DNA of 63,401 nucleotides, counting the filler, from Hausera hauseri (lineage: Eukaryota): the NCBI GenBank assembly GCA_046269625.1. It is 11 parts of 11 records of this genome, joined end to end, with 100 filler letters (N's around TTAATTAATTAA, not from the genome) between each part and the next. Parts side by side here need not be neighbours in the genome. Positions count along the whole stretch, not along the records: positions 43,805 to 48,686 come from JBJURY010404812.1; 10 more parts are not named here. One strand, written 5' to 3'. The position numbers and the translations under genes were made by a program. Positions 9,078 through 60,470 of this stretch are shown piece after piece; position 1 is the first letter of the stretch; each line of letters opens with the position of its first letter. The notes below the pieces were generated by a model. The model did no database searches. It had not been told where the DNA came from and was given only the letters and a program-made list of their open reading frames with translations.

Positions 9078-9841
9078 TGTTATATATTGGGGTGGCCCTT
9101 AACGATCTCCCGCTATATAACAGTAAGTTACTCTTTGGTTTATTAACCTTATGCAGATTCGGTTTGACGTTCTCGTCAAACGAATGTGCCGATGTGTAAC
9201 GATTTTAGCAGATGCGTGTACTGCGGGCAAATCCTGTGCTTGGTTAATTATAATTCTGGTAGCTATATAATTTAAAGTCTGATTTTACCCTTATTGTTGT
9301 CAAACCAGCTTTAAGAGCCGGTGGAAACTATAGTAGGAAGTTAAAACGATGTAAGCACAAATAAATAATATTACCACAATAACACAATCGTAACAGGATA
9401 AATCACTAGCGAATAAGTCAACAATGATTTGGAGCACAACTTGGCACTGCGATTCAACTTGGGTTTTTAAAACAATCGGTCGGAAACTGATCGACGCTAA
9501 AGTCGGAAATATCTTTAAAGAAAACTTTTACAGATGATCGGTTTCTAACGACGCTAAAGTCGTGAAAATAATGTTCTACTCTATTCTGATTTGGCTACGT
9601 TTATATAGTAGTTCATTGTGCAGGCATCCACAATTTCTATTAATTTCTTATGGCATGCTATGTAGGCGTCCGCAATTTTTCTCTATTTTTGATCGATTTT
9701 TCACAGCCCAATTCCAATGCATGCATCACTAATATAATTATAATCTACCGAATTTTATCTATTTACAGTAAACGATTGATATTTACAGCATCTCCTACGA
9801 TTTGACATTTACGACATAGCCTGCGGTTGACATTTACAACA
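9078..9841 (-). mobile_element. 3' LTR (~760 bp) of env/RING element copy A
   Basis: Minus strand starts TGTTGTA right after PPT AGGGAGGAGAAA (9853-9842) and ends TATAACA at 9078; shares CGCAGTACA(C/A)GCATC with the LTR at 48107-48686. The left boundary is inferred. Confidence 0.7.
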
Positions 9842-12116
9842 TTTCTCCTCCCTGAGCGACATCCTCGGATGTGCTTATTGCGTCAGAAAAGGTGGCGCCA
9901 TCATTTGAGCGTTGTAAGGCATTTAGCCTTTGTCGTAAATCGCTTTGGGAATTGATTCGCATACTAGTTTTGGGATTCTGCTCCAAGAAATAAGCAGTAG
10001 GTGTTTCATATCGACTACTCGATTATTTTCGCTACGTGAAAAGTATTTTAACTGGGATGCCTTTGCTTGGCATACTGGCCATGTCGTTTTTCCATTAATC
10101 AGCGTCCATTGTTCCAGACAATCTCGACAATGACGAAGTCTACAGTTCTTATTTGCTAAAATTACATAGCTTTGCCACAAATTGGCTTCACGTACGAGGC
10201 AATAATTTTGGGTATCCTTATCCAAATCACAGTCCGTAACCCATGTTATCTCTTGGAACAATAATCCTTTTGGATTCTTATAAAGGTATGCATGCAGTTG
10301 CTTTTGATCTGGGTCGACTGAACTTTTTCGTGGGTCCTCATTAACGGCTATTAGGGTCCACTCAATTACGGGTTGAGCATCTAGGTCTAAAATTCCCATT
10401 TTCTTGTACTGTTTCTTTATCTCTATTCTGGTCTGGTTATCAACTGGTACAGTTATTTTCTTGGTCCCTATTTTTGACTTGAATACTGGCGTCAAGTATT
10501 TTCCTAGTTTTGGGTCAATTCGTGCGTAGGCATTTTCGTTCAGTTCTAATATCGGTACTGTATGGATATAAAATATCGCTTCCTTGATATTTTCATGGCT
10601 TACATATTCTGCCATTATCAGGATGCTAGGTTGTTCTTCCATGTCCTTGTGGCCCTCTGTGATTATAATTTCTTTGTCTTGTCCCCTTTTTAGTACATTC
10701 ACTTCCGTAAGTCTCTTTGGTATATTTTCAGTAGGGTACTTTTTGATTTGTTCAGTTTGGGCTGATCCCTTTTCTTCTTTAGAAATCCGAATATTGATTT
10801 CTTTTTCTTTTCTGGAGACGAGTCTCTTAATTTGGGTTTTTTGGTTGATGTTCCTTGGTAGCTCTCCTCGATTTTTTTGTTTTTATGGGTATTTGGAATC
10901 CATATGTAATAGTACTTGATTTATGTTGGGCAGTATCTTGGTTTGAAACTGTAAATTGCATATTATTATCCTTGTTTGATACCGTAATTCGCATACTATT
11001 ATTTCTTTTGGATTCGACAATTCGCGTCGGCGAATACGGATGGAATTGTTTTCGGTGGCGCGAATTCAACTCCTTTAGATTCATACTGCTCTGCAGGTTA
11101 TTTTTAGGATGTAATGGTGACCATTCATGATCCCATTTGATTGTGGCGTAAATATCGCGCAAGTATTGGGTTCTTTTGGTAGCGGACAACTGTCGATTGA
11201 TTCTATAGTGGGTTCCGATCATGATTTCTATCATTCCCTTGAAATGCGTTTCCATGGTCATTGGAGCGGGTCGATTTACATTATCCATTTTCTCCTTAAT
11301 CTTGGGGTGAGCCCAAAACTCTTGTATCCCTGCTATATTTTTAGGGTTAATTTTCAGTTTGTCGATTTGTTCCTGGGTTTGGAATCCCGCGATTATACAA
11401 CTATACAAACAGTGGTTTAGTTCCATTTCTACAGCTTTTGTGTCTTTCCCATTTATCAAATCTTAATTTCTTATGCCTGTTATTTCCGCAAACGTTTCCT
11501 TTACTCTTTTGCGAGGAGAATTTCCATCATCCCCTTCTCCGTAGTTTCAGGCAATTATGCGAACGTTTCGCCCATCCTGTACCACTTTATATGACCATAA
11601 ATGTTGGTCTATTTGATATTCCGTCGGATACTGATAGTATATTAGGGGAGGCAGGGGTATGGTTAGGATTTCTTCACAGGTAATCTCTATTATAAATTTT
11701 ACGGGTAGGGATGCGATTCTTAATTCCACTTCTTCTCTCGTCAAGCTTTTTCCATGTATTGCCTTCCGTTGTTTGCGTCCCAGTTTTGTTCAGTCAGTCA
11801 ATAATAAACTTCCCCTTCTGCCAAGTGTATATACACGTCACTGTGCTGCCACAATTTAAATTACAATAAATATTTTAGACGATAGCTTCGTGCATCTTTA
11901 TTTTTCCTCATCGCATATAATCTCAACACTCGATTCTCTTCGACAATTCCCTTTAGATGGTTAGGAATTTCATCCACCTTATTGTATTCGATTGCTGTCT
12001 CGTTCTGTAGTTCCAGGTTGATTTGTCTAGATTGCTTTGGAATTAAGGGTGATGATGATTGCGTTCTCTTGTAAGAATCCGTCGATATTCATGTAAGAGT
12101 TGCTGCTGGTTGCCAT
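9834..12116 (-). pseudogene. Large accessory ORF with degenerate C-terminal RING finger (copy A; frameshifts and stops)
   Basis: Collinear with 45682-48114: EENRVLRLYAMR, LRIASLPVKFIIEIT, EAIFYIHTVP, EDPRKSSVDPDQK, C-terminus QGGEML*. Confidence 0.85.
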
Positions 12117-12227
12117 AATATTCACCAGTCTGAAATAAAACAAATCAAGGTTAATCCTAAGACAGATCTTTGTTTCATTACAAATCAATTTCCCTGTCTG
12201 ATGATAGAATAACCCGATCTGTAGTTG

Positions 12228-12427
12228 TCAGGTTATTTTATCATATAAATCACTGGTAAACCACCCTTATCCGTCCTTATTTTTGTGCTGTTTTCTACAA
12301 TTTTTGGCAGCTATATAAAATGACGCAATTAATATTAATAAGACGAACGTTGACACTCCAATAGTCGATATAATAGATGAAGTTGTTAATTCAATTGGTT
12401 TCTGTGTTGTCATATATGTAGTAATTG
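12228..12427 (-). pseudogene. C-terminus of env-like membrane protein (copy A)
   Basis: TM helix IISTIGVSTFVLLILIASFYIAA, then KNCRK..LYDKIT*; homologous to the end of 44285-45578. Confidence 0.8.
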
Positions 12428-29614: not shown

Positions 29615-32416
29615 TTAGTCATCGTCTGTTTGCTCTTCTGCTAACTTCTTAACACAGGCGTTAAACACTTCAATTGCTTTTCTGGGGTTCCATTTTGCTT
29701 CATCGCATTCTGAATCACTTTCCTTGGTCTCCACCTCTGTTCTGTTCGCTGTTCTTTTATTCAGGGTTCTTTTATTCCTGACTGCCACTCGAACCTTACG
29801 TTCACCTTTTGGCTTCACCTGCTTAGCCTTGTAACTTCCCTTTATAACCTCTGCAGTCTGCTGTTTTGCTTTCATTTGTTTTTGTTTTTCTGTATCAACA
29901 GGGTTTTTATCCTTTTTACTTATCTCCTTATCCACTTCCAGGTTTTCAGCCATTTCTCCTTGACCTACCTTAACTGTTTCTCGTGGTCCTATCAGAACCA
30001 TTTCGCCTTGTCCTATCTTAACCATTTCTCTTTGTCCTATCTTATGCTTTGCTGCAATGTCGCATACGAAACAACAGTCCTTGACGTAAACGTCATAGAT
30101 AACGCCTTCGTCCTGATAATTATGACACCTTTTCTTCATTTCCTTGATAGCTTTGACATATCTAGTTTGCCATTCCTCACAAATTTCAATATTCCTCTTT
30201 TCCTCTTCTATACTCTCCCTAATTTCATTCCTCAACCATTCATTACGTTTCAGTACCTCTTCATTCTGTTTCTTTAATTTCTTTATTCGTTCTAATTGCT
30301 CCCTATTCTCCTCATCTAGCTTTCTCATCTGCTCCTCCATGTCTGGGATTTTCTGTATCTTATCTTCTATTGCATTTATGTGCACCTGATTCCTCTCTTT
30401 GAGACTGTTAAGCTGCTTCAGTTGAATGTTTAATAATTCAATCTCATTGTCCTTTTCCTTTAGGTTTTCCCTATAATTATCTACTTTGTTTCTTAGTGTG
30501 TTAGTATTCTCAACATGGTCACGATGTGAATTATGTAATTTTATCTCTAGTTCTACCTTAACCTTGTAAAATTCTTCCACCTGCCTTTTATTTTGCTCAA
30601 GTAGTTTTTGCTGTTGAGATTCNNNNNNNNNNNNNNNNNNNNNNNNNNNNNNNNNNNNNNNNNNNNNNNNNNNNNNNNNNNNNNNNNNNNNNNNNNNNNN
30701 NNNNNNNNNNNNNNNNNNNNNNTCTAGTTCTACCTTAACCTTGTAAAATTCTTCCACCTGCCTTTTATTTTGCTCAAGTAGTTTTTGCTGTTGAGATTCT
30801 AGTGATTGAATGTATTTCTCCATCTGATCAATTTCTTTCTGTTTATCTGCTACTCTTATCATAAGTGCTTTGACATAGTTTCTCTCTTCCTCCACTATCT
30901 TATTTAATTCTTCTAACTGCTTCAAGTACTCTTCCTCTACAGTGACTCGTTTGATTGGCTCCTCTGAGCTATTCTCAGTATCTTGCTTATGTCTTATTAT
31001 TTTTACCCTCATTTCTTCCCCCTTTTCTGAACTCATTTCTTCCCCCTTTTCTGAACTCTCTTCCCCCAGAGTTCTGGCATATACCTCTGAGCTTTCTTCA
31101 TTCCCACTCAGTGGTTCCTTATAATAATAGTTATCTCTGCTCTCAAGATTCTGAGCGGTGTCTGCCACACCTGCTTGACTTTCTGTCATTCTCTTCCTTC
31201 TTTTTGACTGTTTCCTTGCCACTTTTGCCTCTGTTTCTGTGCTTTGACATTCCTCGACCTTCATATTTTCTTCCAGTGCATCTAGAAATTCCTCTGATTC
31301 ATCACTCACATAACCACTACCTTCATTAGTTGATACCAGACTGCATTGTTTCTCCACTGCTGCTATAACCTGTGGTGAATTACTCTTCACCATTGTTTCC
31401 CCTTCATTCTTCTGGGGTCTACTACCCTTACACTCAATGTCTGTGGCCTGTGGCCCTCCCTCTTTGTCAGCTCCATTAAAATTTATCCTCCATTTGTTTG
31501 ACCTCCTCTGGGTTAATCGCCTCTGAGGTTGGTCCCTTTGTCGAGTCACTTGACTCACTATCCCATGTAGACTACGGATCTCACTTACTAGATTCTTAAT
31601 AATTGTGGTTTGCTTTTCAACCACTCTAAGTGTATTTCCTTCACTTCGTCTTGTTCTATCCCTCTGTCTTTTTCCCGGTCTCTTTTTTGCTTTTTCACCA
31701 TCGGCCTGACAGTGTCCACTGAAGTATGATTGCTCATATGCCCTATCTGAATCTGACAACTTGTGGAACCATTTTTTAACTTCGCTGACTCTTCCACAAA
31801 AGTGACATCTATGTAACTGAATCTTTAGAACTCTACTGTTTATATTGGCACCATTTATTCCTACCAGTGTCTGCTTATTTTGTGAGTTAACATTGGTACA
31901 GGATTCATTAAAATGTAGGATTTTATTTGCATGTCTATTATAACTAAGTGTCCCGTGAGCTATTTTATCATCTTCAAAATGCCTCATTGTTTGATTTCTT
32001 ATTATTTTCCCAGTTTCTCTTGCCCCATTCATGTAATTGTTTCTATAGTGGTGGTCATTCTTGCCCCACTTTGAGAACCTTTCTCTGCTATATTCCCAAT
32101 TGTTTACATTCCATCTTTTCTGTGGACCAAAATAAAAATCACCCCATGGGATAACCCTACCCCTCTTTTGTCTACCTAAATCACCCCACAACTTCCTACT
32201 GTCTTGTCCAGTAACTACCTGTCTGTTTACCTGGTGACCTAAATTCCTTTCTCCCTTCTTTTTGTGACTAGAAAACCCACCTTCTGTAGTGTGTGAGTTC
32301 ATGACCTTGCTAGTAGGAGTGTTTAGTGTCCTATTGTCTAGTAATTGTTCACAGGCCTGTGCTTTGGACTGTGTTACTGTATTGGGCTGTGTTGTTTCAT
32401 CTGTTGTTTGTTCCAT
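29615..32416 (-). CDS. Long uninterrupted coiled-coil ORF with degenerate zinc knuckle; probably retroelement gag-like
   Basis: First ATG at 32416; CHFCGRVSEVKKW resembles a CCHC knuckle; E/K/Q-rich coiled coil. About 875 aa once the 77-nt duplication and 100 N gap are removed. Confidence 0.55.
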   Translation of the reverse strand: MEQTTDETTQPNTVTQSKAQACEQLLDNRTLNTPTSKVMNSHTTEGGFSSHKKKGERNLGHQVNRQVVTGQDSRKLWGDLGRQKRGRVIPWGDFYFGPQKRWNVNNWEYSRERFSKWGKNDHHYRNNYMNGARETGKIIRNQTMRHFEDDKIAHGTLSYNRHANKILHFNESCTNVNSQNKQTLVGINGANINSRVLKIQLHRCHFCGRVSEVKKWFHKLSDSDRAYEQSYFSGHCQADGEKAKKRPGKRQRDRTRRSEGNTLRVVEKQTTIIKNLVSEIRSLHGIVSQVTRQRDQPQRRLTQRRSNKWRINFNGADKEGGPQATDIECKGSRPQKNEGETMVKSNSPQVIAAVEKQCSLVSTNEGSGYVSDESEEFLDALEENMKVEECQSTETEAKVARKQSKRRKRMTESQAGVADTAQNLESRDNYYYKEPLSGNEESSEVYARTLGEESSEKGEEMSSEKGEEMRVKIIRHKQDTENSSEEPIKRVTVEEEYLKQLEELNKIVEEERNYVKALMIRVADKQKEIDQMEKYIQSLESQQQKLLEQNKRQVEEFYKVKVELXXXXXXXXXXXXXXXXXXXXXXXXXXXXXXXXXXESQQQKLLEQNKRQVEEFYKVKVELEIKLHNSHRDHVENTNTLRNKVDNYRENLKEKDNEIELLNIQLKQLNSLKERNQVHINAIEDKIQKIPDMEEQMRKLDEENREQLERIKKLKKQNEEVLKRNEWLRNEIRESIEEEKRNIEICEEWQTRYVKAIKEMKKRCHNYQDEGVIYDVYVKDCCFVCDIAAKHKIGQREMVKIGQGEMVLIGPRETVKVGQGEMAENLEVDKEISKKDKNPVDTEKQKQMKAKQQTAEVIKGSYKAKQVKPKGERKVRVAVRNKRTLNKRTANRTEVETKESDSECDEAKWNPRKAIEVFNACVKKLAEEQTDDD

Positions 32417-32847
32417 TCTCACTATTTATTGTTACCTATCTGTCTATTATATTTATTATATCTTTCTAATTATGTTTATACCCTGTTATTAACTCTGTCC
32501 TGTGAAATAAAATTTGTTATAAATTATAATTTATTGTCACCTGCAAAAAAAAAGTGTATTAGTTTTGCAATAAAATTGCTGATTAAATTGTATTAATTTC
32601 TTGATTGTTTGCGTTTTTATATGTTGTGCTGTTGCCAGCTTTACATGTCAAAATAAAAATATACCTGCAACAAGAAATAAACATTTAGTACCAACATGCA
32701 AATATATTCAGTGTCCAATGATTTATCTTCCCAGTCTGAATGTTTTCTTCCCCCTGGTTCATTCAATAAGTCCTTGTCTGAGATTACCCCCAAAGAGATT
32801 TTCTCTGCCTAGGATTATCCTGGCACGGAGACCAATATTTATAATGG

Positions 32848-38120: not shown

Positions 38121-38721
38121 CTAAAGTAACATAAGTGACTTTTATATAATTGAACTTTAGTATAAAAAGTTAAACAGTTATCTGGATATACATGGTAATT
38201 AAAAGAAAACTGGAGTAATGATGAAAAATTGTTATTGGACGTCAGAGAGGTGCAAAATATGCTGATTAATGAGATTAACATTCCAAGTACGGTAATAGGA
38301 GTTTAACTCGAAGAACGGCACCCGTCAAATTGATGGATACGATGAAAAATTAACATCAACTAAAAAGGCACAAGTATTTAATTGCAATCGTAGGTAGAAC
38401 GCAGACGTCACAAGAAATCAACACAACGATAAATATATATTGAATTTTAGCAGTCTCGCGGCAGTCACAAAAGTTAGATAAAAATTTAAATTTTGCCGTC
38501 ATATTCACGGTTGCCGCCTTTATAGGTAAACATCGCAACAAATCATTCCTTGTTTAACTCTACTCAACTTATCATGGCTTTTAATTATCTGGGCAACAAT
38601 CAATTAAAACTTATTTGTTGTAACGCAAGAAATCATAAGTATTGAAAGCGCACATATAAATACTTGCCGTCAAATTGACGGCATCGTCCTTCTAGTGTTA
38701 AAAATGTTTTGTCAACGAAGT

Positions 38722-39150
38722 CAAAATAACGCATTCGGAGCATTTAAGTATGACAGCATTTTGAACTTTTTCAAATTTTCCCACTACATGAAGTAATTTT
38801 GAACTTCTGCAAAATTTTCATTACTTTTCTCGAGTCAATGTTCTTTTATTATTCGATTTATAGCATTTCCTTTATGTTTTGACGAAATAAAATATGCATC
38901 ATATATTGTCTGTGGTCAATCATGTGATAGTCAAAATTTATACACGAGGGAATGTCATTGTGAATTAAATCAATATATTTTAGATTGACAGAACATCAGA
39001 AAACATTGTAAATCGAATAATGAAAAAAACATTTGCATGAGGAAAGGAAGGAAAATGATCTGAAAGTTCAAAATTTCCAAATACAGTAGGGGATATTTGA
39101 ACAAGTGCGAAATGCTGTTACATTTAAAGGTTTCAAATGCTTTATTTTGG
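38722..39150. mobile_element. MITE-like element, same family as 7880-8186
   Basis: CAAAATAACGCATTCGGAGCATTTAAGTATGACAGCATTT is inverted relative to AAATGCTGTTACATTTAAAGGTTTCAAATGCTTTATTTTG. Confidence 0.65.
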
Positions 39151-39301
39151 CTTCCTCGGTAAGAAGTTTTTTATATTATTATTCAGCATTATATTTGTTA
39201 TNNNNNNNNNNNNNNNNNNNNNNNNNNNNNNNNNNNNNNNNNNNNTTAATTAATTAANNNNNNNNNNNNNNNNNNNNNNNNNNNNNNNNNNNNNNNNNNN
39301 N

Positions 39302-41418: not shown

Positions 41419-43040
41419 TTAACCCTATGTGACAGTTTGTGTACAATTTGCATCAAACCATTTTCATCGATTTATACGTGCTAGCGTTGGAGAATTTTTC
41501 TCTTGAAACCTGTTATTGCGAATTCTACACTTACCTAGCAAATAGTGAGAAACAGAATTGCAACAGTTTATGAGTGTTCATGTTCTTGTTCTTTGATGTT
41601 CACACCTGTGTGTACGAGTTGGCTTGGGGTTCAGTATTACGTTTTATCAATGGGATTTCTTCACGTGTTATGTATTTTATGAATTAAAAATAGGAAATTG
41701 ATAAGTAAAGGGCTAAAGATGTAATAAAGTTGTTTTAGTTTGAAATATTCTGAAACAGTAACTATTTGTACGAGTGTAAACCATTGTGTAAAATTCTACA
41801 CTGGAGGCTTCAATGTTGCATTTCACTAATCTCAAAGCATTTTAGTACTTTGATCAATTTTTATTGTAGTAATAATTTACAAATTGTGTTTATTATTATT
41901 TGCAATGATGTAATTTTTACAGGTACATAACATTGAGTTTTATGATTTTTCATAATTTTGTGTCAAATTTTAGATTTTGAGATTTGATTTCAATGATTTA
42001 CAATGAATACAATTAGTTCAAAAAGCCTTTATGGTACAAAGTCTACCATTGAGAATCACACTCGCACTGCACCCAAGGACAGTTATGATACTGGATTGTC
42101 AGGAAATGAAAGTGAGGATGACATACCGACACCTAATATTTGCAATTATTATGATGACGTGGAAGATGGTGGTAGTGATGAAGATGATGACATCGAGGTA
42201 CCAAGCACTTCTGGAGCTGCACCTCATGGTAGAGATACTGTATTGGAACGTGTGACAGGTGCTGCAGGTCACAAGCCAGTCCCAGTCTGAACGGAAACCC
42301 CTGCGGATGTGGATGAATTGAAGCTGTCGATCGAGTATTTCAGATATTTCTTCTCAGATGAACTATTTGACCATATGGTACAGAAAAGCAACTTGTTTGC
42401 CATACAAAGAAATGTAAACAAACCTCTACAGCTTCTTAGACACGAGCTTGAACAGTTCTTTGGAAGTGTGATGATGGTTTTCATCTTCAAGTATCCAAGA
42501 ACACAAGGGTACTGGGCAAAACAACTCAACTATAGCATATTTCCAACCTCATATCTCGTGACAATGATGGAAATCAAGAGCAACTTGCACATAAATAATA
42601 ATACAAATATGCCTGATGCTAATGATGCGAACAGATATAAACTCTTCAAAATTAGACCATTGATAGTTTCCAGTCCCTCAAAATGTCGCAGATGATGAGC
42701 ATAGATCAACAGATGAATCCTTTCAAGGGGCATAGCAACTGGAAGCAGTACATGCCGAAAAAACCTTACAAATGGGGGTACAAGATTTTCATTCTCAGCG
42801 GAAGTGATGGTGTTTCATACAATTTTGAAGTTTATACGGGGAATATTGGGCAAGCTGATAAATGCGCAGATATTGGAGCAAGTGAGAATATAGTTATGAA
42901 GCTAACAAACATTGTGCTACACAATGCAAATGCTCTGTTGCATTTTGATAACTGGTTTGCATCTTTGAATCTTCTGGTGGAACTGCACAAGAAAGGTTCG
43001 TAGGCGCTCGAAACAATCAGAAGCAATCGTCTGGGTGCTT
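41419..43040 (+). mobile_element. piggyBac element (PGBD3-like transposase pseudogene), 3' truncated
   Basis: TTAA-CCC at 41419; fragments 42003-43040: YFRYFFSDEL, KLFKIRPL, SIDQQMNPFKG..QYMPKKPYKWGYK, FDNWFAS, TIRSNRL. Confidence 0.92.
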
Positions 43041-43804: not shown

Positions 43805-44233
43805 TTCACTCCATTTTTTATGATGTACGGAAGAGAAGCTGCGCTTCCTACAGATCTAGGACTGATTCCATATACAACACAGACGGAGGATTTAGAACAA
43901 AATTTTGTCGAAATATTACAATCAAGACTGCACAAGTGTTGGGAAATAGCCAAGGAATTATCTAAAGTATACCAAGAACAATTCAAGAAGCAATACAATA
44001 AGAAAGCTAAACCTCACGATTTAGAACCCGGAAACTGGGTTTATATACACTATCCAGTAGCAAAGAAAGGCACATCTCTGACGCTTACCAGAACAGGCAG
44101 AGGACCTTATTAAGTTACTAAGATTACGCCTACTACAGTTTATATAAATAAAAACGGTACGGAAGAGGTTATATCAATTCAGAGGGTAGTTAAAACGGAA
44201 ATAAGACCAGTCAAACGCTACAATTTGCGTTCA
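43805..44233 (+). pseudogene. Ty3/Gypsy integrase C-terminus (GPY/F module) of env/RING element copy B
   Basis: FTPFFMMYGREAALP..KKQYNKKAKPHDLEPGNWVYI..GPY*VTKITPTTVYI..RYNLRS. Confidence 0.9.
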
Positions 44234-44284
44234 GGCAAAATTATTAGAGAAACAAAAACGTTGTCAATAGTAACTAGACCAATA

Positions 44285-45578
44285 TCGTATGTGCAAATAG
44301 TCCTGGCCTTATCGTTAATCGCTTCGTATCTACCGAAGGTGAAATCGATAAATCAAGCTGAAAAATTGCAATATGCGGCAAGGGACATTTAAAACTTACA
44401 GTCACCCAAAGTACACGATATGGATTGGAGAAAACCATGTTCGTGGTTCGAAGCAAGTGAACCCATTTAGAGTTATGTGAAATTTCAAATAATATTTGTA
44501 ACTAAATCCATGATGAGAACATGTGATTTTCCACACGGACATCATAAAAGATGCTGTGATTTGGACTTTTGACAAGCCTACGGATACAGATTTCAAATGT
44601 TCTATTCTAATCAGTTTGGAGCTCAAGCTTATATAATTACAGAACTCGTAATAAGAATGCCGCAGCGAAAGGATGCGAATCAAGTCAAGACGGACGAAAT
44701 AATCCGAAGCACTGACCCGTTTAAAAGACTCTTAGAATATAACATTATTGGGATTTCTAAGGACTTTAAAAACCAATGTATTCGAATCAAAACTAAGGTA
44801 GAACTGCATGGAGACAGACAAATTTCTGTCCGATGTATACCATTAAATGCTTCCATTCCTAACCCGGAGTATTGTTATTTGGCCAGACGCCGATCTACTA
44901 TGTGCTGTGTAATACAATTAGGACAAAAATATCAGCTGCAATTCGACTTGTACAATACGTACTCCGGAGAACGAAGTACGGGATATCGTCCGAGAATCGG
45001 AATATGGGAGCTTTCCTTCCCAACCACTACGAGAAGACCATCTACAGTTCCAAGTACAACTCTCACTACTACGATCGTCACTTCGGACGAAATGCCAGAA
45101 AGCATACCGGTTAAGATTTTAGCAAAAAGTGGTAGAATTCTATTTTACGTTGAAGAGACGTTAAATCGAGACGTCAAAATTGAATGTCGCACCCTGCACA
45201 TCAACCAAGTTGTGATCCTGAAAAAAAAATAATCAGGAAGCTGAATGCAGGTCCTTACGGCCGAAACATGACTATATAATCAGAATTATCTCAAAGGATA
45301 AGAACCCTAAAACTTATACAGTGCGGACTGTAGACAACCAAATCTAAGTGATGCGGTAAAGAGATCTTAGTACGCAGAATGCTTTTACCACAAAAGATTC
45401 TATTGAAACAAACAATTTACTGACGATAGTTAAATTAAGTTTATCAATTTTCGTTCTTGTCATATTAACGGCGATGATTTTTCTAGTTTCCAAAAATTGT
45501 AATAAGCGCTGTAAAAATCGGAAGGGAGATAAATGGGTAAAAAGGCACCAAAACGGACTTTATGATAGCATAACCTGA
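44285..45578 (+). pseudogene. Env-like type-I membrane protein (signal peptide, Cys-containing ectodomain, Thr-rich stalk, TM, YxxI tail), decayed
   Basis: YVQIVLALSLIASYLPKVKS in frame with integrase; PTTTRRPSTVPSTTLTTT; TM LLTIVKLSLSIFVLVILTAMIFLVS; KNC..LYDSIT* with TGA 45576-45578. Confidence 0.75.
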
Positions 45579-45681
45579 CAACTACAGATCGGGTTATCCT
45601 ATCATCAGACAGAGAAAATGTTTTGTTTCAAAACGGTGATGTCTTAGGACTGACCTTTATTTTTATTTCAGCAGAGTAAGT

Positions 45682-48114
45682 ATGGCCGAAAAGGCAAAGA
45701 ATCCAGCCGTCAGTTCCAACTACGACATCGATGATTTCTTACAGCAGCACGTTACTGTTCTCAAACCATTATCCAAGAGTTTATATCGACAAATTGGAGA
45801 AAATCTGTAAACCCAGACCTATCTAGAGTTCAATCAAGAGAGTAAAATACCAAATGGACTAAAATGGGGTTTAGAAGAGAATCGACTGGTCCGATTATAT
45901 GCCATGAGAAATCCCAAGGATGCACGGGCATACCTTTTAAGAGATCGGATCCCATATGAGCCGACACATCAGAAATTGTATATACATGTCGCTGATGGAG
46001 AAATTCAATACAGGATCGTAAGACAATCCTGGATTACTCAGAAAGGACAGCAATGAAAGTTTAGTACCTACGAACTATGTTGTTATAGCCTCATGAATTA
46101 TGCTCTAGAATTCAGGATCGCGGACCTTCCGACCAAAATAATGATCGAGATGACGTGGCGAATAGAGGTAATGAATCCACTACCACCATTATTATATATA
46201 CAGAAGCCAACGGAAGATGAAATAGAGCAAAATGGGGAATCTTATAGATTAGTCCCAGGTGGCCGAAATACCCGGATATTGGCAGTAAACTATGGAGAAA
46301 AGGATGACGGATGGTATGTTCCGATTGAGGTCTCTTTCAGAAATACTAATGGAGAAGAGATCATAAATAAAATAATCGCGCCTCGAGCTAGAATAAAGTA
46401 TACTTTTCCCGATGTCACAGGAATTACGAAAGTACAGCTCGAAAAGGGAAAGGATTCCTTGGAGATCCAAGAAGATATAAGCCATTGCTTCTATGTATAT
46501 ATTGTTACCGGATTCCGAGTGCACGAAGCGCTGAAGCGACTAGGAATTAGGCAAGAATACATAGCCGGAATTCCAGAATTGAGCCGAAACCCAGCAGTTG
46601 TGAGCCAAGTAAAAAATACCTTGATGCAGAAAAGAGGTTGCCTGCTTCTGTCAGCATCGCGCGAATCGCAATTTAAGATGATGCTAGAAGCCATAAATGG
46701 CGAACGATCCAAATTCCCTAAGTTGATGACAGCAAGCCAACGGCCCAAATTTATAAAAGATATCTATGACTCCTTACGATGGGATCTCGAATGGAAACCC
46801 AGAAATTACATGCAGAATGCGATATTCAACAATAATCCCAAGACCCTAATACAAAAATTCCGAAAAGGATTTAGTGAATACCCGAGTTATCGGCAAATAG
46901 TACCCCAAGAACATAACTGATTTCGAGTAACAGTTCAAAATAATCCAGTAGAAGTCCGTAACAGCCAACAGAAACCAACAACCAGTCAAGCTCAAAAAGA
47001 AACAATAGTAAAATCAAATAACCCTGACAACTCCAGAAGGCAAAAGACGAAAACTTCCTTCCTGTAATATATTAGTAAGAAGAGTAAACCTAGTAAAAAT
47101 CAAACAGACAAAAATAAACCAGCAGCCGACAGCCCAATTCAGAAGGAACCAACAAACGATGAAAAGAAAATATCGAGCCAACGAGGAACAGAGGAAAACA
47201 ACGAAAATCAGTCAAGAACTACCAAAATTGGATCGTTTAGGACAGAAATTAACGTTCTTCGGAAAAACTGGGAGGAAGATACTCCAATTATCGTTACAAA
47301 ATTCGGTCAAGTGAAGGAATATAAAAGAATCCTCGTCATGACTAAATATCATAGCAAAGGTAAAATCAGAGAAGCTATATTTTATGTATCCACTGTCCCT
47401 AGAAGAATAGTAAGTGGAAACGGATATACGAAAAAAGATACTACCATTGGCAGACACTTAGCCCCAATATTTCAATTAAAGAATGGCAATAACAGATTAA
47501 CAATTCCCGTGGATACCCAAGTTAGAATGCAAATAAAAAGACAATATAAGAAGACTGGAGTACCCGATTTGGATAAATAAGAAATAGTCGAATGGACGTT
47601 GGTTACGGTATCTGAAGATCCAAAGAAAAGTTCAGTAGACCCCAATCAAAAGAGACTATACGGATACTTATACCAAGACAGAAAAGTACTGGTATTCTAG
47701 AAAATAGAAGTGGATGAAAACCTTGTGGATATCGACGCAGCTGAAAAGGAAGAATGTCCCGTTTGCGATGCGGATCTCTATCAAGGATTCGTAGTATTGG
47801 ACAACAAGGATTGCAGTCACAAATATTGCACGTACTGCTTAAAAATGTGTACTGTGAAAAATGGGAAAATGATCTGTACAGTAAGTAGAGCCGAAGCTAC
47901 AAGGCTGAGACACTACTCAAATGGAGAAAACAAGAAAATAGTAGAGATACTACCCGAAAGGGCTACTACATTCTACCATTTTAACTCGAAATCGCAATCG
48001 AACGAGGCGCATTCGGAAGCGGACTTAAGCGGACGAATGGACCGATTACGCGGCACCTCTACTGATGCAACGGGCACATCCGAGAGTGCCGTTCAGGGAG
48101 AAGAAATGTTGTGA
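45682..48114 (+). pseudogene. ~810-codon accessory ORF with C-terminal C3HC4-type RING finger (copy B; one frame, several stops)
   Basis: ATG 45682 and track ORFs 46093, 47311, 47710 share a frame; CPVC..CSHKYCTYC..CTVS; the stop overlaps the LTR start. Confidence 0.85.
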
Positions 48115-48686
48115 AATGATCAACTTTGCAAAATCGTACTAAACGAAACTGTTATCGAAACGGAAACCAAAACAAATTGATTATAATTGAATGTAGTGCA
48201 CAATCCGATATAAAGTTCGAGGTATTAACTAGTGTATATAAGCCGGAAATTATTAAAATTGTGTAAATAGTCAACCAATTTAATTGAAATAAAAAAAATT
48301 GCAAATCGAAGAAAAATATTTTAAATATACGAGTCCAGAACTGTATATAAGTGGATGGATTTATGTACAGTCGTCAGTAGTTAGCCAGTTGTTAATCAAT
48401 CAATTTGAATAAACAGAATCTACATTTGCATCGAGAAGAGTTCACGACTAATAGAAAGACATTGAATTGCATTGTGAATCTTCGATATTGTTATTGGTAT
48501 TTTTCCTTGTTGTTTAATAAATTTTCGTTGCAAACTCTCATATAGTTTTCCGTCGCTCCTTACGAGGGACTTTCACCACACTAAGTTTCAAAATTGATTT
48601 AAACTTCATAAATAGGTCGAGATCCGATAACTACGCAATGCACCACACGCAGTACAAGCATCATAAACTAGTGCATACATTCTAAC
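48095..48686 (+). mobile_element. PPT and 3' LTR of env/RING element copy B (truncated by contig end)
   Basis: AGGGAGAAGAAA (48095-48106) then TGTTGTGA at 48107; same arrangement as copy A. Confidence 0.8.
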
Positions 48687-51948: not shown

Positions 51949-53930
51949 ATGCAATCCTATTCCACCATTGGCACTACGGACGATCCTGCTAAACCTAAAT
52001 CGATTATTTACCTCAAAAAACAATGTAACCTTAAACCATCAATAACTCCTCAAAACTCTTGTAAGACTTCTCTGTATGAGCAAACGGATATCAACCCATC
52101 TCAGTGTACCGAATATTTTATTGACAACCAAAATTCTAGCAAAACTTGATTGCAGTTTCACCAACTATGGCTTGAATCTTGCGACATTACTGATTTTTTG
52201 GCTAAGGCTAACAATCTTCTATTCCTCCTCTCAACCAACATCAAAACTCGTATCCACAATCTTATGGATATTTTTCAGCAGGCCGACCCTTATACTCAGC
52301 TTTATATACTCTATAATTCATCGCTTCTTTAATCATAATGCAATGGGAACACAAAAGCCTTCTGAATTTCTGCGTATGTCGTTGACTCACCTTCAAACGC
52401 TAGGTGTAACCAAGCAGCACAATTCCGACCTTCTGCGACGATATTTCTTAAACGCGTTGCCTACACAAATTAGGGCACTTTTTACCGTTGTTGAGGAATC
52501 TACGGTGTTGGATAAATTAACCGAATTAGCTCATAAAGCACATGAAGTGCTACAATTGAATTCCCAACCAATTGTATCAGCCGCGGTCACAACAAGCGAC
52601 AACCAACTCAATACATCAATAGAGCAACGGTTGAGCCAACTATGCGTTTAAAACTTGGCACGACAACAGACAATAAATAACATTAATAATAGGTTAAACG
52701 ATCTTTCATTACCACGACGAAGTGTCCTTTTTTAACCTTACCCGTTCTGTTTCCAAAAATCGGTCACCATCGCCTACACGATCTTATGTATGCTATTATC
52801 ATAACACATTTAATAATAAAGCTAATAAATGCTGTTTAGGGTGTAGATATTACACTCCACATTTACATTCAGACAAAATTGTTTGCATCTATCGTGCGAA
52901 ATTTGGATTTCACGCTCAGTGTCTTTCAGGGTGCAACTATAAGAACAACGCTAACCATACCACCGGCAGAAGTTCTATTTCCCCTTGTAATAGTCGGCCG
53001 ATCTCACCAATTCAAAAAAACTAATTTCGCCGCCAGTACTCACGGCAGAGTCTGGCAAAGGCAACTTCCCTAACACTAACTGCCGATACACTTGCAGTTT
53101 TTACACTAAAGGCTTCGATAACCACACCAACAACTCAATCTGTAGACTTTCTTATTGACACGGGTGCTGCGGTTTCTTTGCTGTTACTCTCCTTCTCTGT
53201 ACAAAATTCACCATTCAAAACTAAATTATTATTTACGGCTTCCGGACTACCGCTCGACATTTTAGGTACATCTAAATTATCGTTCACCTTACCAAAATTT
53301 CACTCCCAGTTTCATTAGCCGTTTACCGTCGATAACGTCCGCACAGTTATACTAGGTTCCGATTTCTTATCCCACTTTAATCTTTTAGTTGATTGCAAAC
53401 AACAATGTCTGAAAAGTAACACTACTGGATAACGTACCAAGCAAATAAACAGTATATCCGCTATAGCGTGAACGATTTTCCGACAGAAATCTATACTCAA
53501 ACATCCTATAACTAATCTAAACTTCTTCAACAAGCATTTTTCATTTCGTAAATTTTTAATGATAATATTGATATCTCGTGGAGATTTGGCTTTGGCAACT
53601 ACGGTTGTGTTAGTTCGGTACCTTCCCTAGACAAAATTACCTCTTCGAACACTATTTTCAATACTACTATCCTACATTAAATTCCACTTGATTTCACTAG
53701 CTCAAAATTCACTCGTCACTGCATATATTAACTCAATACTCCTCCCAACACCCAATGTCACAATTGCCTGCAAGCCTACGGCAATACATGCGCACTTCAT
53801 GTCCCCGTTTAATCCAAAAGGGCCGATCTTTCACTTCTACGGGTAGCACTATTCATCACATCATAACGCAACATGAACGACCTATTCGTCAAAAGGTGCG
53901 TCCATTGTCACATCGTCGTAGGAAAACTGA
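51949..53930 (+). mobile_element. Ty3/Gypsy element copy 3: decayed gag, protease, start of RT
   Basis: MGTQKPSEFLR..FLNALP..LDKLTEL; CYYH..KCCLGC and CIYR..CLSGC; FLIDTGAAVSLL; HHIITQHERPIRQKVRPLS. Confidence 0.92.
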
Positions 53931-54030
53931 NNNNNNNNNNNNNNNNNNNNNNNNNNNNNNNNNNNNNNNNNNNNTTAATTAATTAANNNNNNNNNNNNNN
54001 NNNNNNNNNNNNNNNNNNNNNNNNNNNNNN

Positions 54031-57000
54031 ACGTTGAGGTACTTGATGACGTTGGAATTGTTGTAGGTATGGTTGATTCAATACTCGAAGTCACAGTGCT
54101 TGTTGTCGTTGGAATTGTTGTCGATGTGGTCGGTACCATAGTAGATGTTGAGGTACTTGTTGACTTTGGAATTTCTGTAGATGTGCTTGGTACTATACTA
54201 GACGTTGAGGTACTTGATGACGTTGGAATTGTTGTAGGTATGGTTGATTCAATACTCGAAGTCACAGTGCTTGTTGTCATTGGAATTGCTGTAGTTGTGG
54301 TCGGTGCCATACTAGACGTTGAAGTACTTGTTGTCACTGGAATTTCTGTAGATGTGGTTGGGACTATACTAGACGTTGAGGTACTTGATGTCGTTGGAAT
54401 TGTTTTAGATATGGTTGATTCAATACTCGAAGTCACAGTGCTTGTTGTCGTTGAAATTGCTGTCGACGTGGTCGGTACCATAGGAGATGTGGAAGTACTT
54501 GTTGTGGTTGGAATTTCTGTAGAAGTGGTTGGTACTATACTAGATTTTGACGTACTTGCTGTCGTTGGAACTGTTGTAGATATGGTTGATTCAATACTCG
54601 ACTTCACAGTACTTGCTGTCGTTGGAATTTTTGTCGATGTGGTCGGTACCATATTAAATGTTGAGGTACTTGTCGTCTTTGCAATAGTTGTCGATGTCAC
54701 AGTGCTTGTTGCCTTTGGAATTTTTGTCGATGTCAAAGTGCTTGTTGTCGTTGGAATTGTTGTCGATCTGGTCGGTACCATACTAGACGTTGAGGTACTT
54801 CTTGTCGTTGGAATTTCTGTCGATTTGGTTGGTACTATACTGGGCGTTGAGGTACTTGATTTCGTTGGAATTGGTGTAGATATGGTTGATTGAATACTCG
54901 AAGTCACAGTGCTTGTTGTCGTTGAAATTGTTGTATTTATGGTAGACACAATACTCGACTGCACAGTCCTTGTTGTCGTTGGAATTGTTGTCGGTGTGGT
55001 CGGTACCATACTAGACGTTGAGGTACTTCTTGTCTTTGGAATTTCTGTTGATCTGGTTGGTACTATACTAGGCGTTGAGGTACTTGATTTCGTTGGAATT
55101 GTTGTAGATATGGTTGATTCAATACTCGAATTCACAGTGCTTGTTGTCGTTGGAATTTCTGTCGATGTCACAGTGCTTGTTACTGTTGGAATTGCTGTTG
55201 ATGTCGTCGGTACAATAGTATATGTTGGGGTACTTGTTGTCGTTGGAATTACTGTCGAGGACTCAGTATTTGTTGACGTTGGAATTGCTGTCGATGTGGT
55301 CGGTACTATAGTAGATGTTGATGCACTTGTTGTAGTTGAAATTTCTGTCGATGTGATTGGTACTATTCTAGACGTTGAGGTACTTGTCGTCATTGGAATA
55401 GTTGTCGATATCACAGTGCTTGTTGACGTTGGAATTGCTGTCGATGTGGTCGGTACCATAGTGTATATTGAGGTACTTGTCGTCATTGGAATAGTTGTCG
55501 ATGTCACAATGCTTGTTATCGTTGGAATTACTGTCGATGTCATAGTGCTTGTTGACGCTGGAATTGCTGTCGATGTGGTCGGTACCATAGTATATGTTGA
55601 GGTACTTGTTGTCTTTCGAATTTCTGTCGACGTCACAGTGCTTTTTATCGTTGGAATTTCTGTCGATGTCATAGTACTTCTTGTCGTTGGAATTACTGTC
55701 GATGTCATAGTGCTTGTTGTCGCTGGAATTGCTGTCGATGTGGTCGGTACCATAGTGTATGTTGAGGTACTTGCCGTCATTGGAATAGTTGTCGATGTCA
55801 CAGTGCTTGTTGTCGTTGGAATTGTTGTCGATATGGTCGGTACCATACTAAATTTTGAGGTACTTGTTGTCTTTGGAATTTCTGTCGATATGGTTGGTAC
55901 TGTACTAGACGTTGATGTACTTCTCGTCTTTGGAATAGTTGCCGATGTCATCGGTACCATACTCAATGTCATAATGCTAGTTTTCGTTGGAATTGCTCTC
56001 GATATAACTGGTAACATACGAGACGTGACGGCACCTGTTGTCGTTGGAATTATTGTATATATGTTTGATTCAATACTATATGTCACTCTGTTTGTTGACC
56101 TTGGAATTGTTGTCGATGTGGTCGCTACCACACTCGATGTCGAAGTACTTGTTGTCGTTGGATTTGTTGTCTTTATGGATGCTATCATACTAGATTTTCC
56201 GGTACTTGTATTCTTCAGAATTGTTGTCGATGTCGTTGGTACCATATTGGACGATGTCGTGCTTGTTCTCGTTGGAATTGTTATCGATGTGGTTGGAGCC
56301 AAATTATTCGTTGGGATAATACGTTGTGGAAATGTAGTCATTGTGATTGGCGGTATGATTGGAGAACTCGTTTTTATTGATGTAGAAATGACATTTGTTG
56401 CTGTGTTTGTTAATGTTTTTGAATAAGTCATTTTAGTTGATGAAATGCTTCTAGACAATTCGGTTATATTGATTTTTTTTGATACATTAGTTGAATTTGT
56501 AGTCCTGTTTTGTAGACGTATGGACATTGAAATTGGTGACATAGTGGAAAATATTGAAGTCGAAGGATGTGATTCGTTTGGATAAATTGTAGCAGTTGTG
56601 CGCATAGAAGAGTTTGTAGATTCAGTTGACCCTGCTGTTGCTGTCGTTGTAGGAAGTATATTGGTCGTCATGTTTGCTTGCGTACTTTTATTCCTGTTAT
56701 CATCTGTGCTGTTAGACTTACTTGATGAAAGTATAGTATTGGTACTTTCAAATTTCGTTCTTACCGTTTGTAGTGTTGAAGTTGAAGAAATAGTTGGTCT
56801 ACTGTTTGAAACCATTGTTTGAATAATTTTATCCGGTATGTTTGAAAACATAATGGAAGACATTAAGGAAAACGAATTTGTCTTTTTTGAATCTGTAATC
56901 TTTTCATGTTTCGCCGAACTTTGTGATGTCACAGATGATGTCTTTGTAGTCGTAGTTGGAGGAACCTTAAATACCGTACTGGACATGATACTTGGCACAG

Positions 57001-58084
57001 GTTTAGTTTCTGTTTTATACGATATTCTTAAGGAATTTTCAATGGATGTCTGCGCATTTGTATGAATTGACGTTGATATCGAACCTGTAGACGGGGCAAT
57101 GAAAGATGCTGTACTCTTAATATGAGGATCATTTGTTTCAGAAGAAAACGTATCGTATTTACTTGTTAAAGTTGAAGTCGAAAATTGTGAACTGCTGTTG
57201 AGAGAATCCATCATCAAACTTGACGTTACTTTAGATATTTTGTTTGAAGTTTGAGGGAAAATGTTAAGTGTACTTAAAGTCATACTGGTGGAAACGGTAA
57301 ATGAATTTTCTGACGTTTCGTTTGGAAATGTTGATAAAAACGATTGTAATTTCATACTTGAATTAGTAGATGAAACTGTACCAGTATTAATTGACGTTGT
57401 TGCTGAGGAAATTATGGACTTTTCTTTCGAGATATTATCAGGATTAATTGTAGTTAGTGTTCCTTCTGTTAGATTTGTATAAATGTTTTGTAAGGTTGAA
57501 CTTTGATTAATGTCCGTTACAATTTGTGAAGAAATTGTTTCATTGATTATAGTTATCGGACCTGAAGAATCACGTCCGTTAAGTGTCGTTTCAATTGATT
57601 TATCCGTAGTTATTGGCTTGGATTCTGAAGTAGAAAAAGAGCTTTTACTTGTTTCATCTGTCGTATTTGACATGTTTATAATTAAAGTATCTTGTGTACT
57701 GTTTGAGATAGATTCAGTCATTTTGAATATCGTAGTTTGAAATGTGCTTACGTTCGGTGATGTCGTCATATCTGTCACAATTTCACTAGTTTTAGATCGC
57801 GTCAATAGTACCGGATAGGTTGACAATTTCAATCTGTTGAAGCTTGTTATGTGTTCTTTATTATTTGCAACTGTTACAGTTGATTTTGATGATGACGAAG
57901 TTATTGTAGTAAAATGATTGGAACAGACACAGTTCATGAAAAAAATATGATTCCATTGTTTTTTGCACTGACAAAATGGTATTGTTTGTAAATTCGAAAC
58001 ACCGATGTAACAGAGTCCATTAGAAATATTAAACTTGAAGGTTGTCACATTACGACTTAATGCATAAACTGCACAATGAACCAT
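54031..58084 (-). CDS. Mucin-like protein: Cys-rich (PAN/apple-like) N-terminal part and long Thr/Ser/Pro repeats; C-terminus missing
   Basis: About 1350 open codons; HCAVYA..TFKFNISNGLCYIG; 19-aa (57-nt) repeats in 171-nt higher-order units. True start unclear. Confidence 0.85.
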
Positions 58085-58785
58085 ACTTCGTCTACTGAGT
58101 ATTTCAGCTGCATGTGAAATGTTATACTTCCTGCAGATCCATCTAATCTGATTTTTGTCTCACTACTTAATATCTCATACAACAAACGTATGAAATATTC
58201 CAGGAGATTAGATTCGAACATTGATCTAGATTTAATGCCCATGACACCGATCTGTACAGCTGTTGGGGGTTTTGTGGATGATGTATACATACAGCAACTT
58301 CAGTTCAAACATAACCATTATCGCAATTAAATATATATATTACCACTTTGATTAATATAAAATTAAGTATACAATCATGTGTTATAAATGTATTATAAAA
58401 TGGACATGTGAATATAAACTTTATTACAACAACATTTAGTCTGAATCTTTATCCCTCTTGTCCACCCATGCTGCCAACCATGCATTACTATACTTTTCAC
58501 CGCCAATGCTTTGCAATAAAGATATTTTACATGTAAATATCTTCCTGTTTTCGTACTATAAGGCAGCATTGTTCGATCGGTTTCTGCAAACTAGACAATT
58601 TTTCTTGACTTGCATCTAACCGACAAANNNNNNNNNNNNNNNNNNNNNNNNNNNNNNNNNNNNNNNNNNNNTTAATTAATTAANNNNNNNNNNNNNNNNN
58701 NNNNNNNNNNNNNNNNNNNNNNNNNNNGACGTATACTCAATTCAAACTCAGTGAAGAATGAAAGTTCATATTAAGAAAAACTGAC

Positions 58786-59460
58786 ATGCAACTGATGAAT
58801 TTAATCACAAAAATACCGAAGTTACACGATTCAGTGAAATATTTTAACTACATCGAGATTACAATTATGTTGATAAAAAATTATTTCAAACGATTAATAA
58901 ACATTTCGGAATATATCGACAATTTCAAAAACAAAACACTCAGCTGTCGTTCAACTCAATTCGATAAATTGGAATTATTTATGAAGATGTCTGCTCCATT
59001 TCTACGTGATTTTAACATAAATTGTAATAATTCTAAGAATAAATTTACACAGAAAATGATGCTGAAAGAACGCTTTATTTACGTTCTTAAAAAAGCGAAA
59101 GAACAAAGAACACGTTTGAAATCGTACGTCAAGAATCTGAGAGATAAAATACATTGCGTCGAAAGGAAATTACAAATGTCAAACGAATTGATACAAAAAC
59201 AAAGTACTACAAATTTCAATGAAGATGTATTATCGATGAGAAACGACATTTAGTCAATCTACCCGAATAATGATGGGAATGAACGAAAATATTTTGAAAA
59301 CAGAAATTCTGAATTAGAAAGTATAAAGGACGAAGAAAAACGCCATAAAATTTTTCACAACAAATTTCAGGAATTAATTGGAAATTTATACGTCTATTGT
59401 CGAATTAAACCAAGTCCGTACAGTTGTCTAAAATTATTGTATGAAGATAAAATTATGGTG
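58786..59460 (+). pseudogene. Kinesin-14 coiled-coil/neck fragment
   Basis: After the stop at 59253 the frame reads EEKRHKIFHNKFQELIGNLYVYCRIKP, the kinesin-14 neck (LHN..QELKGNIRVFCRVRP); motor domain absent. Confidence 0.75.
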
Positions 59461-59739
59461 TCGATTAAAAAGATTGTACAAAATGAAATAAAACATGTAG
59501 ATAAATTCATGTCAGAAAAAATTGTTACGAATTTAATGAGTTCGATTGTTAAATTGCCGATTTTACTCTGTTCATTAAAGAGTTATGATCTATATATGAA
59601 TTTCAAAGATATTAACACACATGTCGGTAATGTGTTATTATTTACCACCATTTCAAAAATTTATTTTTATAACGTATTAATTTTCCTCACAGTTGCAGTA
59701 ATGTATTTTGGTAATGTATTATTATTTATCACAGTTGTA

Positions 59740-60470
59740 GTTTACCCAACCGATCAAAAGAGAGAAGCACTATTGTTGCTGGCTCATATTTTTCAGCGAA
59801 AAATTTGTCAAGATAGTGGGACGTTTTCCTCAAATTCCGGTCGAATTAATAAATTGCCAGATGAACAACTTATTGGAATATTAAAATACCACGAATTAAA
59901 GGCAAAAGGTAATCCAGAGGTTTTACGTAAAGGATTGAAGGAATTTATGAAACGACAAACAAAAAATGACACTGATCAAAATGCTGAATCGTTGTCTATT
60001 GAATCATTATATTCTTATTTTCTTATGATTGATTTCGAGGTAACTTGTGATAAAATGAATAATCGATTTAAACACAAAATTATCAAATTTTTGATTATAC
60101 TTTATGATGTAGTTTTAAATCGCAAATTTGAAACTACAAAAATGGTTAAATAAACACCATGTTTTCGGAATCATTCACTATTGTTTGATATTGTAATATT
60201 GATATGGCGAAATTCATGAGAATTCAGTGTGAAATCCGTGGTATTGAATTTCCATCATGGTGTAAACAACGGAATAACATAACAAAAAGTTTTCGACAAT
60301 TCTATAAGATATCTAGTTTATTGAAACCCAATTTACAAAAAATGTTGAACAGTCTTGGATTAGCGTTCAAAAGTCAACAACACAAGGGACTGAACGATGC
60401 AGAAAATGCTCCCCGAATCACCGAAATAATTCTAAACGACAGATGTGGTCTGCAGATAAACGAAAAGTTC
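59740..60470 (+). pseudogene. ERI1: ERI1 3'-5' exoribonuclease fragment (SAP + DEDDh) with internal deletion
   Basis: SAP RINKLPDEQL..LKAKGNPEVLRKGLK; YFLMIDFEVTC; DMAKFMRIQC..MLNSLGL..HKGLNDAEN..LQINEK. Confidence 0.85.

Follow-up and report, generated by a model that had tools for sequence, protein, structure and literature searches.

The window analysed here, a 63,401-nt stretch of DNA from Hausera hauseri, consists of short pieces of repeat-rich sequence with N runs between them, and two separate N-bounded pieces carry copies, A and B, of one element. A tyrosine-kinase-like tail and a C2-like fragment, picked out by eye in translations of the window, make an animal source probable. Copy A (43805-48686, + strand) reads, in order, integrase-like tail, ORF2, stop, ORF3, purine run and TG, and its contig piece starts inside the integrase-like tail. 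Copy B (12427-9830, - strand) covers the same stretch, but only from the ORF2 TM segment onward. The integrase-like tail of copy A has no meaningful Pfam or PDB match and contains a motif, picked out by eye, which we take to be GPY/F-like. A PPT-like tract followed by TG, as at the 3' LTR of Ty3/gypsy elements, is present at the 3' end of both copies, which match at 81% over 75 nt in this region, and the ORF3 stop of copy A falls just within it. The family to which the copies belong is likely a high-copy, LTR-retrotransposon-like one. The features of the two copies are as follows.

43805..44270 (+): integrase-like tail with a GPY/F-like motif and one stop, from the translation of copy A
44270..45578 (+): ORF2 ('env') of copy A, decayed, interrupted by 5 stops and frameshifted near 45222-45232; identity to intact P0006 32%
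~44267-44323 and ~45435-45491 (+): signal-like hydrophobic stretch and TM of ORF2, copy A, followed by a basic tail ending YDSIT
45562..45605 (+): hairpin 1, predicted, 16-17 bp, stop at the top of the 5' arm; -17.5 (A) and -15.6 (B) kcal/mol
45576..45584 (+): UGA stop and CAR-YYA (TGA CAA CTA); 11/11 identical between copies over 45576-86
45591..45656 (+): stem 2, predicted 3' readthrough stem, in which 45591-601 and 45607-11 pair with 45640-56
45650..45681 (+): branch-point-like CTGAC, pyrimidine tract, CAG (AG at 45670-71) and donor-like GTAAGT 4 nt on; 13/14 identity
45682..48114 (+): ORF3 of copy A, decayed, with 6 internal stops and no frameshift
~45720-46160, ~46270-46800 and ~47755-47890 (+): AlkB-like, dead ISG20-like DEDDh (predicted) and RING domains of ORF3, copy A
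48095..48114 (+): purine run then TG, PPT-like tract and likely LTR start, copy A sequence
12228..12427 (-): end of ORF2, copy B, TM and tail; one earlier stop interrupts the frame before the TGA
12194..12236 (-): 43-nt element, copy B, from the alignment with copy A; TGA at 12230-12228
12114..12227 (-): copy B linker, uninterrupted after the TGA and in the ORF3 frame; 3' arm 12164-12148, AG 12131-12130, ATG 12116-12114
9834..12116 (-): ORF3 of copy B, with stops, frameshifts and damaged RING ligands

Both copies are decayed: copy A has five stops and one frameshift in ORF2 and six stops in ORF3, copy B has stops and frameshifts, and damaged RINGs and internal stops are found in both. Judged by their reading frames, both copies are dead, and neither an ORF2-ORF3 fusion nor ORF3 alone could be made from them. 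They were compared with the relatives P0005, P0006 and P0008, which are known as proteins only; an intact ORF2-stop-ORF3 DNA locus was not among the sequences compared. In copy A, the integrase-like frame enters the ORF2 signal region without a stop (44114-44392), with Val where intact P0006 has Met.

ORF2 had been called Env in the original prediction, and a signal peptide, a C-terminal TM by hydropathy and a position 3' of the integrase-like tail fit that label, but no env or fusogen match was found in Pfam or with the low-confidence fold. The sole intact ORF2 relative among 911 candidates, P0006 (479 aa, 32% identical), has hydropathy peaks at residues 13 and 429, and so ORF2 is predicted to encode a type I membrane protein, FN3-like, with a cytosolic tail. 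P0006 matches no env family in Pfam. Its model is of low confidence (pLDDT 42.7) and is matched by Foldseek to FN3 arrays (best E 8e-7); the best VIA-align match has a Z of 7.8 (rmsd 2.9, 84 aligned), and the top matches are FN3 or other beta-sandwich proteins. A search of a viral fold library with the low-confidence ORF2 model gave beta-sandwich repeats and no fusogen among the best 50 matches. Atlas matches, all below 0.9 and to be read as leads only, were FN3-like for ORF2 and RNase_T-like for ORF3. From the models, 'FN3-like' appears to be a consistent lead and 'Env' a positional label only. Between the signal and the TM of copy A lie three predicted beta-sandwich (FN3-like) domains and an S/T stalk, and the tail has a YxxI ending that resembles a sorting motif.

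ORF3 has two close relatives, P0005 (870 aa, 40% identical) and P0008 (333 aa, E 1e-108), among 39 representative matches, the others comprising 23 to the N-terminal half and 14 to the RING only, which were set aside. The P0005 model was built on 24 sequences and is confident over residues ~60-410. Residues 49-207, a possible double-stranded beta-helix of the AlkB/2OG-Fe(II) dioxygenase kind, match Ofd2 (Z 10.2, rmsd 4.0, 138 aligned; domain not folded alone) and several AlkB chains (Z 8.6-9.7), and no HxD...H iron-ligand motif is visible by eye in P0005 or copy A. An ISG20-like DEDDh fold follows in P0005 (ISG20, Z 18.8, rmsd 2.2, 159 aligned; Foldseek E 7e-8 to ISG20L2). The catalytic D-x-E reads A-x-N in P0005, P0008 and copy A, and later residues are lost too in P0005 and copy A; the domain is predicted to be catalytically dead. 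Between this domain and the RING, copy A has a low-complexity stretch and then a beta region, and a beta-rich region before the RING is conserved at 47250-47700 (P0005 ~595-735, low model confidence). The C3HC4 RING of P0005 (747-790; PF00097, E 2.6e-7) retains all eight Zn ligands, whereas that of copy A lacks the last Cys and that of copy B lacks three ligands. Taken together, the models predict that ORF3 is an RNA-binding E3 ligase. The proposal of a membrane-anchored E3 holds in that the topology would place the RING in the cytosol, but the partner is larger than a RING, at ~800 aa, the RING being preceded by an AlkB-like and a dead ISG20-like domain.

The 23 N-half relatives are separate proteins of 173-778 aa, 12 of which match Pfam RNase_T at E<=0.01; several of them (among P0009-P0045) retain the DEDDh residues. 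They may represent a wider family in which an AlkB-like domain is paired with an ISG20-like nuclease. No relative of P0005 was found in IMG/VR.

The junction between ORF2 and ORF3 is the most conserved part of the stretch shared by the two copies. The claim of a near-invariant 43-nt element stands: 45570-45612 (+) and 12194-12236 (-) are identical at 42/43 positions, against a background of 54.6% over the common 2.7 kb. The binomial probability of at least 42/43 is 2e-10, or 5e-7 across all windows, and the next-best 43-column window, at the 3' end of the element, reaches 36/43. The 22-nt core has two matches in the window at <=3 mismatches, with 0.00 expected from 100 shuffles. Identity between the copies is 11/11 over the stop and spacer (45576-86), 25/26 over 45587-612, 17/27 over the loop (45613-39), 16/18 over 45640-57, 13/14 over 45658-71 (pyrimidine tract and AG) and 8/19 over the 19 nt after the AG. 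The flanks, described as diverged in the original prediction, are diverged in the loop, but the segments at 45640-57 and 45658-71 are conserved too. A comparison of synonymous sites, which had been suggested as a check, points the same way as the 43-nt identity: codons for the same residue are identical in 10/10 cases after the stop and in 118/270 in ORF3, and therefore the constraint is on the RNA. In the TM and tail the count is 15/20.

Conservation was also assessed in a contig run, X1, the one run listed by a search that listed no RNA run; X1 is possibly the window's own source and has 894 pieces on 45380-45800 at 80% likeness. Depth, which is not equal to copy number, peaks at ~116,000 over 45590-619 and ~99,000 over 45665-79 and is below 1,000 at 45380-439; a dip with loose ends at 45640 coincides with the copy A indel. 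Four metagenome loci matching an 18-nt core were rejected as chance, the flanks being unrelated by eye in all four. No Rfam family, SECIS among them, reached its gathering threshold over 43805-48686, and the junction had matches with E>1 only.

The TGA at 45576-78 in copy A and 12230-28 in copy B closes a TM-plus-basic-tail ORF in both, and is followed directly by CAACTA. The ORF2 C-termini read YDRIT in intact P0006, YDSIT* in copy A and YDKIT* in copy B, and because the intact relative ends at the same YDxIT, the TGA is, on this alignment, the normal ORF2 end of the family. The predicted stop-CARYYA signal is thus found after a natural stop in both copies, with a chance of ~0.003 for an exact CARYYA after a stop. 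The commonest change near the stop in other copies, C45582T (64% of X1 depth, 59 contigs), gives CAA-TTA and leaves CARYYA intact, and no TGA variant occurs among 40 listed of 130 X1 variants. For assignment to type I readthrough, CAR-YYA directly 3' of the stop is present and a UAG stop is absent, both copies having UGA. An alternative genetic code was ruled out, all three stops being scattered at positions where intact P0005 and P0006 carry residues.

Two RNA structures are predicted at the junction, and they share one strand, the 5' strand of stem 2. The pairing originally proposed between ATAACCTGA and TCGGGTTAT is recovered in folding (-8.2 kcal/mol, z -1.7 and -2.2). The hairpin around the stop does pair, but it is longer than had been described, with 16-17 bp over 45562-45605, and it excludes the 3' stem. 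Hairpin 1 has a z of ~-6 and is matched in stability by 0/300 shuffles, in a folding window chosen by the analyst. Hairpin 1 covers the stop and excludes the 3' stem, and is therefore more like a switch than a stimulator; a ribosome at the stop must melt it, and so the second, 3' stem is the likelier stimulator. Stem 2, predicted with the stop region removed, begins 13 nt (A) or 7 nt (B) after the stop and has energies of -19.4 (A) and -22.6 (B) kcal/mol, with equally stable shuffles in 25/300 (A) and 2/300 (B). Its own stability is modest, with z scores of -1.6 and -2.0 for A and of -3.0 and -1.4 for B, and full-context folding of free RNA gives hairpin 1 a probability of ~1.0 in A and 0.4 in B (40:60). 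Its arms are conserved (25/26 and 16/18) around a freer loop (17/27), in which the copy A frameshift sits.

Covariation consists of one-sided compatible changes and one two-sided change inferred from the amino acids of P0008. Among the X1 variants, G45591A (33% of depth, 40 contigs) replaces Gly by Arg and turns a G.U into an A-U pair in both stems, and C45650T (in a bulge) and G45652A are compatible with stem 2. Residues 1 and 14 of P0008 (start codon and His, versus Gln and Leu) require an A-U pair in the top helix of stem 2 to be replaced by U-A, as read from amino acids in an ungapped alignment. Over the 3' arm, the one arm available for P0005, its residues differ (VIRIA versus CLRIN). The folding models suggest that stem 2 likely stimulates readthrough.

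Downstream of the stop, the linker is open and in frame with ORF3 in three of the four copies (B, P0005 and P0008), and not in copy A. Copy B has 45 open codons from the TGA to the Met preceding a conserved DID motif, and P0005 and P0008 have 54 and 67 open codons before the same Met, with the linker motif in frame. The chance of such an open stretch is ~0.03, 0.02 and 0.008 for B, P0005 and P0008, each taken singly as they are not independent. Out-of-frame relatives are invisible in protein databases, and so two open relatives out of two is a biased count. P0008 aligns with copy B without gaps over linker codons 10 to 24, and differences in linker length are whole codons, including one codon inside the pyrimidine tract. 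In copy A the frame is shifted in the stem 2 loop and a TAG lies 22 codons after the TGA. Programmed frameshifting was ruled out because B, P0005 and P0008 are in frame. The proposed programmed readthrough into an Env-RING fusion is therefore matched by a natural stop with its signal and an in-frame RING ORF, but not by copy A, which is out of frame. A search of 3,678 longer candidates found no fused ORF2-ORF3 protein, which is weak evidence.

An acceptor-like site also lies at the junction, its branch-like motif falling in the 3' arm of stem 2 in copy A. A strict scan for branch, pyrimidine tract and YAG over 98 kb unmasked, both strands, gave five matches, two of which are copies A and B. 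A Met precedes the first folded domain in 3/4 copies. The overlap of this conserved site with the 3' stem makes it probable that ORF3 is also expressed by itself, as a soluble protein translated from RNA spliced at AG 45670-71 and beginning at the Met that directly precedes the first folded domain. Within the window TTTCAG is no commoner than expected (45 versus 44) and so gives no host acceptor consensus; X1 contigs contain no joints and are uninformative on splicing. A donor-like GTRAGT/GTGAAT lies exactly 4 nt after the AG, at 45672-45681 (+) and 12129-12120 (-), and V-S or V-N occurs at this site in 4/4 proteins; the hexamer is possibly a micro-exon or exon-definition signal.

From the natural stop, its context, the RNA constraint and the open linker, we consider it probable that the membrane-protein gene and the RING gene are joined by a cassette for programmed stop-codon readthrough, of which the 43 nt form the conserved core, and which gives a minor tethered ligase. 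Most ribosomes would stop at the TGA and release the type I membrane protein with its FN3-like domains and YxxI tail. A ribosome reaching the stop would melt hairpin 1 and free the shared strand, which would then pair as stem 2 just ahead of the ribosome. With CAR-YYA and stem 2 acting together, a minority would insert an amino acid and go on through ~35-70 codons to ORF3. Both nucleic-acid-binding folds of the product, catalytically dead, and its C3HC4 RING would sit at the membrane on the cytosolic side, making the fusion a tethered, RNA-binding E3 ligase. Its likeliest job, speculatively, would be to collect at the membrane the RNP or particle of the element itself and to ubiquitinate it, so promoting trafficking or budding. 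A more far-reaching scheme, which we offer tentatively and regard as possible rather than expected, is a two-state RNA switch that couples splicing and recoding: hairpin 1 on nascent RNA would leave the branch point free, yielding soluble ORF3, and the translating ribosome would flip the RNA to stem 2, yielding the membrane-tethered RNA-binding E3. A captured FN3-type receptor and ligase would then replace a fusogenic Env, bringing particles to membranes or neighbouring cells.

Against readthrough, the conserved acceptor offers a route to ORF3 that does not require it, and the original prediction had named a splicing role as a finding that would count against it. In its full form, hairpin 1 and stem 2 would serve only to gate the acceptor and branch point used to splice a subgenomic ORF3 RNA, with the TGA terminating normally and CAA-CTA being a fixed hairpin loop sequence. 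The rarity of strict acceptor-type matches (5 in 98 kb, both copies included), the 13/14 identity of the tract, the branch-like motif within the stem 2 3' arm, the Met ahead of the first folded domain in 3/4 copies and the existence of the 23 distant N-half relatives as separate proteins (173-778 aa) are all consistent with it. The acceptor-like site is present and conserved, but splicing control alone is unlikely. It leaves unaccounted for the reading frame that stays open ahead of the AG in B, P0005 and P0008, the length change of one whole codon within the tract, and the exact CARYYA after the stop, which the common variant keeps.

Hairpin 1, as the most stable local structure, might instead serve packaging, dimerisation or export, with ORF3 reached by re-initiation or an internal promoter. 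Its paired codons upstream of the stop are synonymously identical in 4/4 cases; the TM and tail region already stands at 15/20, however, so this is weak evidence, and a packaging hairpin explains neither the open linker nor the conserved 3' arm. Re-initiation is disfavoured by the lack of an AUG near the stop in both copies, and we regard this alternative as quite improbable. It is highly improbable that ORF2 and ORF3 were once a single continuous frame in which the TGA arose by decay or encodes selenocysteine, or that the match between copies reflects gene conversion. Decay stops are many in both copies, and some selenoprotein genes have a stem close to their UGA (PMC3159437), but intact P0006 ends at the same residue, the same stop is found in two copies that are 55% identical, and the conservation peak extends across the 894 X1 pieces.

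The readthrough cassette favoured here resembles several known systems. CAR-YYA is active across eukaryotes, with all three stops in plants and yeast, and in the available text of PMC13517186 type I readthrough needs no structure and animal viruses are listed under types II and III only. The hexamer is of the tobamovirus (Beier-Grimm type I) kind, CAA-CUA here and CAA-UUA in many copies. In contrast to tobamovirus type I, the stop here is UGA and a 3' stem is present, which type I does without (PMC13517186). UAG-CAR-YYA readthrough and an 8-nt spacer in MuLV have been described, and 3' stems with free loops boost readthrough up to ~10-fold (PMC3159437). UGA-C, an extended stem, conserved arms and a free loop recall alphavirus/kelch and gammaretrovirus signals, and the stem spacer is near MuLV's 8 nt (PMC3159437). 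The present junction differs from these in its CAR-YYA, competing upstream hairpin and overlapping acceptor-like site, and in fusing a membrane protein to an accessory ORF rather than a polymerase. SIRE1 is said to have a CARYYA-like stop context. This Sirevirus is likewise an LTR retrotransposon that expresses an extra ORF by stop suppression, but it is a plant Ty1/copia element reading from pol into env, whereas readthrough here would lead out of a membrane ORF into a cytosolic one (PMC2829016). Luteovirus coat-protein readthrough similarly places a long C-terminal extension on a minor share of a surface protein, although there the protein is a capsid protein, the signal is different and the extension serves aphid transmission, and here it is a membrane protein (PMC3159437).

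Bdelloid rotifer LTR elements carry accessory DEDD-fold and membrane ORFs 3' of pol, their nucleases being DEDDy with intact residues and without TM domains; neither 'readthrough' nor 'RING' occurs in the available text (PMC5408684). The ORF3 domain differs in being ISG20-like DEDDh, predicted dead, with an AlkB-like domain on one side and a RING on the other, and in its link to a TM ORF. A DnaQ-like exonuclease has been given as an accessory domain (PMC6338049). The gene set of an FN3-like membrane ORF with an AlkB-like, dead ISG20-like and RING ORF was not found among the matches listed in the open-access literature. The cited retroelement readthrough runs from gag to pol or from pol to env; here it would exit a membrane ORF and add a cytosolic module of ~800 aa and, if true, would fix the proportion of plain surface protein to surface protein that bears the ligase. 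The cassette would unite signals that are usually separate, CAR-YYA on the one hand and UGA plus a 3' stem on the other, and with the competing hairpin and the acceptor all within ~120 nt it forms a compact, testable candidate recoding switch.

Elsewhere in the window, three decayed copies of another gag-pol element (4303-5731, 15763-18737 and 52102-53930) are 64-68% identical, with an RVT_1 match at 17671-18003 and RT and RNase H motifs by eye. A broken piggyBac-type transposase (DDE_Tnp_1_7) lies at 42291-43003, and an inverted-repeat, MITE-like element at 38717-39154 and 7891-8186 has related pieces elsewhere. Two long repetitive ORFs on the - strand, 53975-58159 and 29615-32425, run 1394 and 936 codons stop to stop across N runs and have no Pfam match, and a 4.8-kb tandem array of ~76-nt units with weak internal self-complementarity occupies 18838-23643. 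Decayed, apparently intronless host-gene fragments are found at 1246-2265 (NOG1 C-terminus and a PPR-like part) and 58762-62966 (a kinesin-like piece followed by one resembling, by eye, an exonuclease and by an SMC hinge); both look like chimeric retrocopies.
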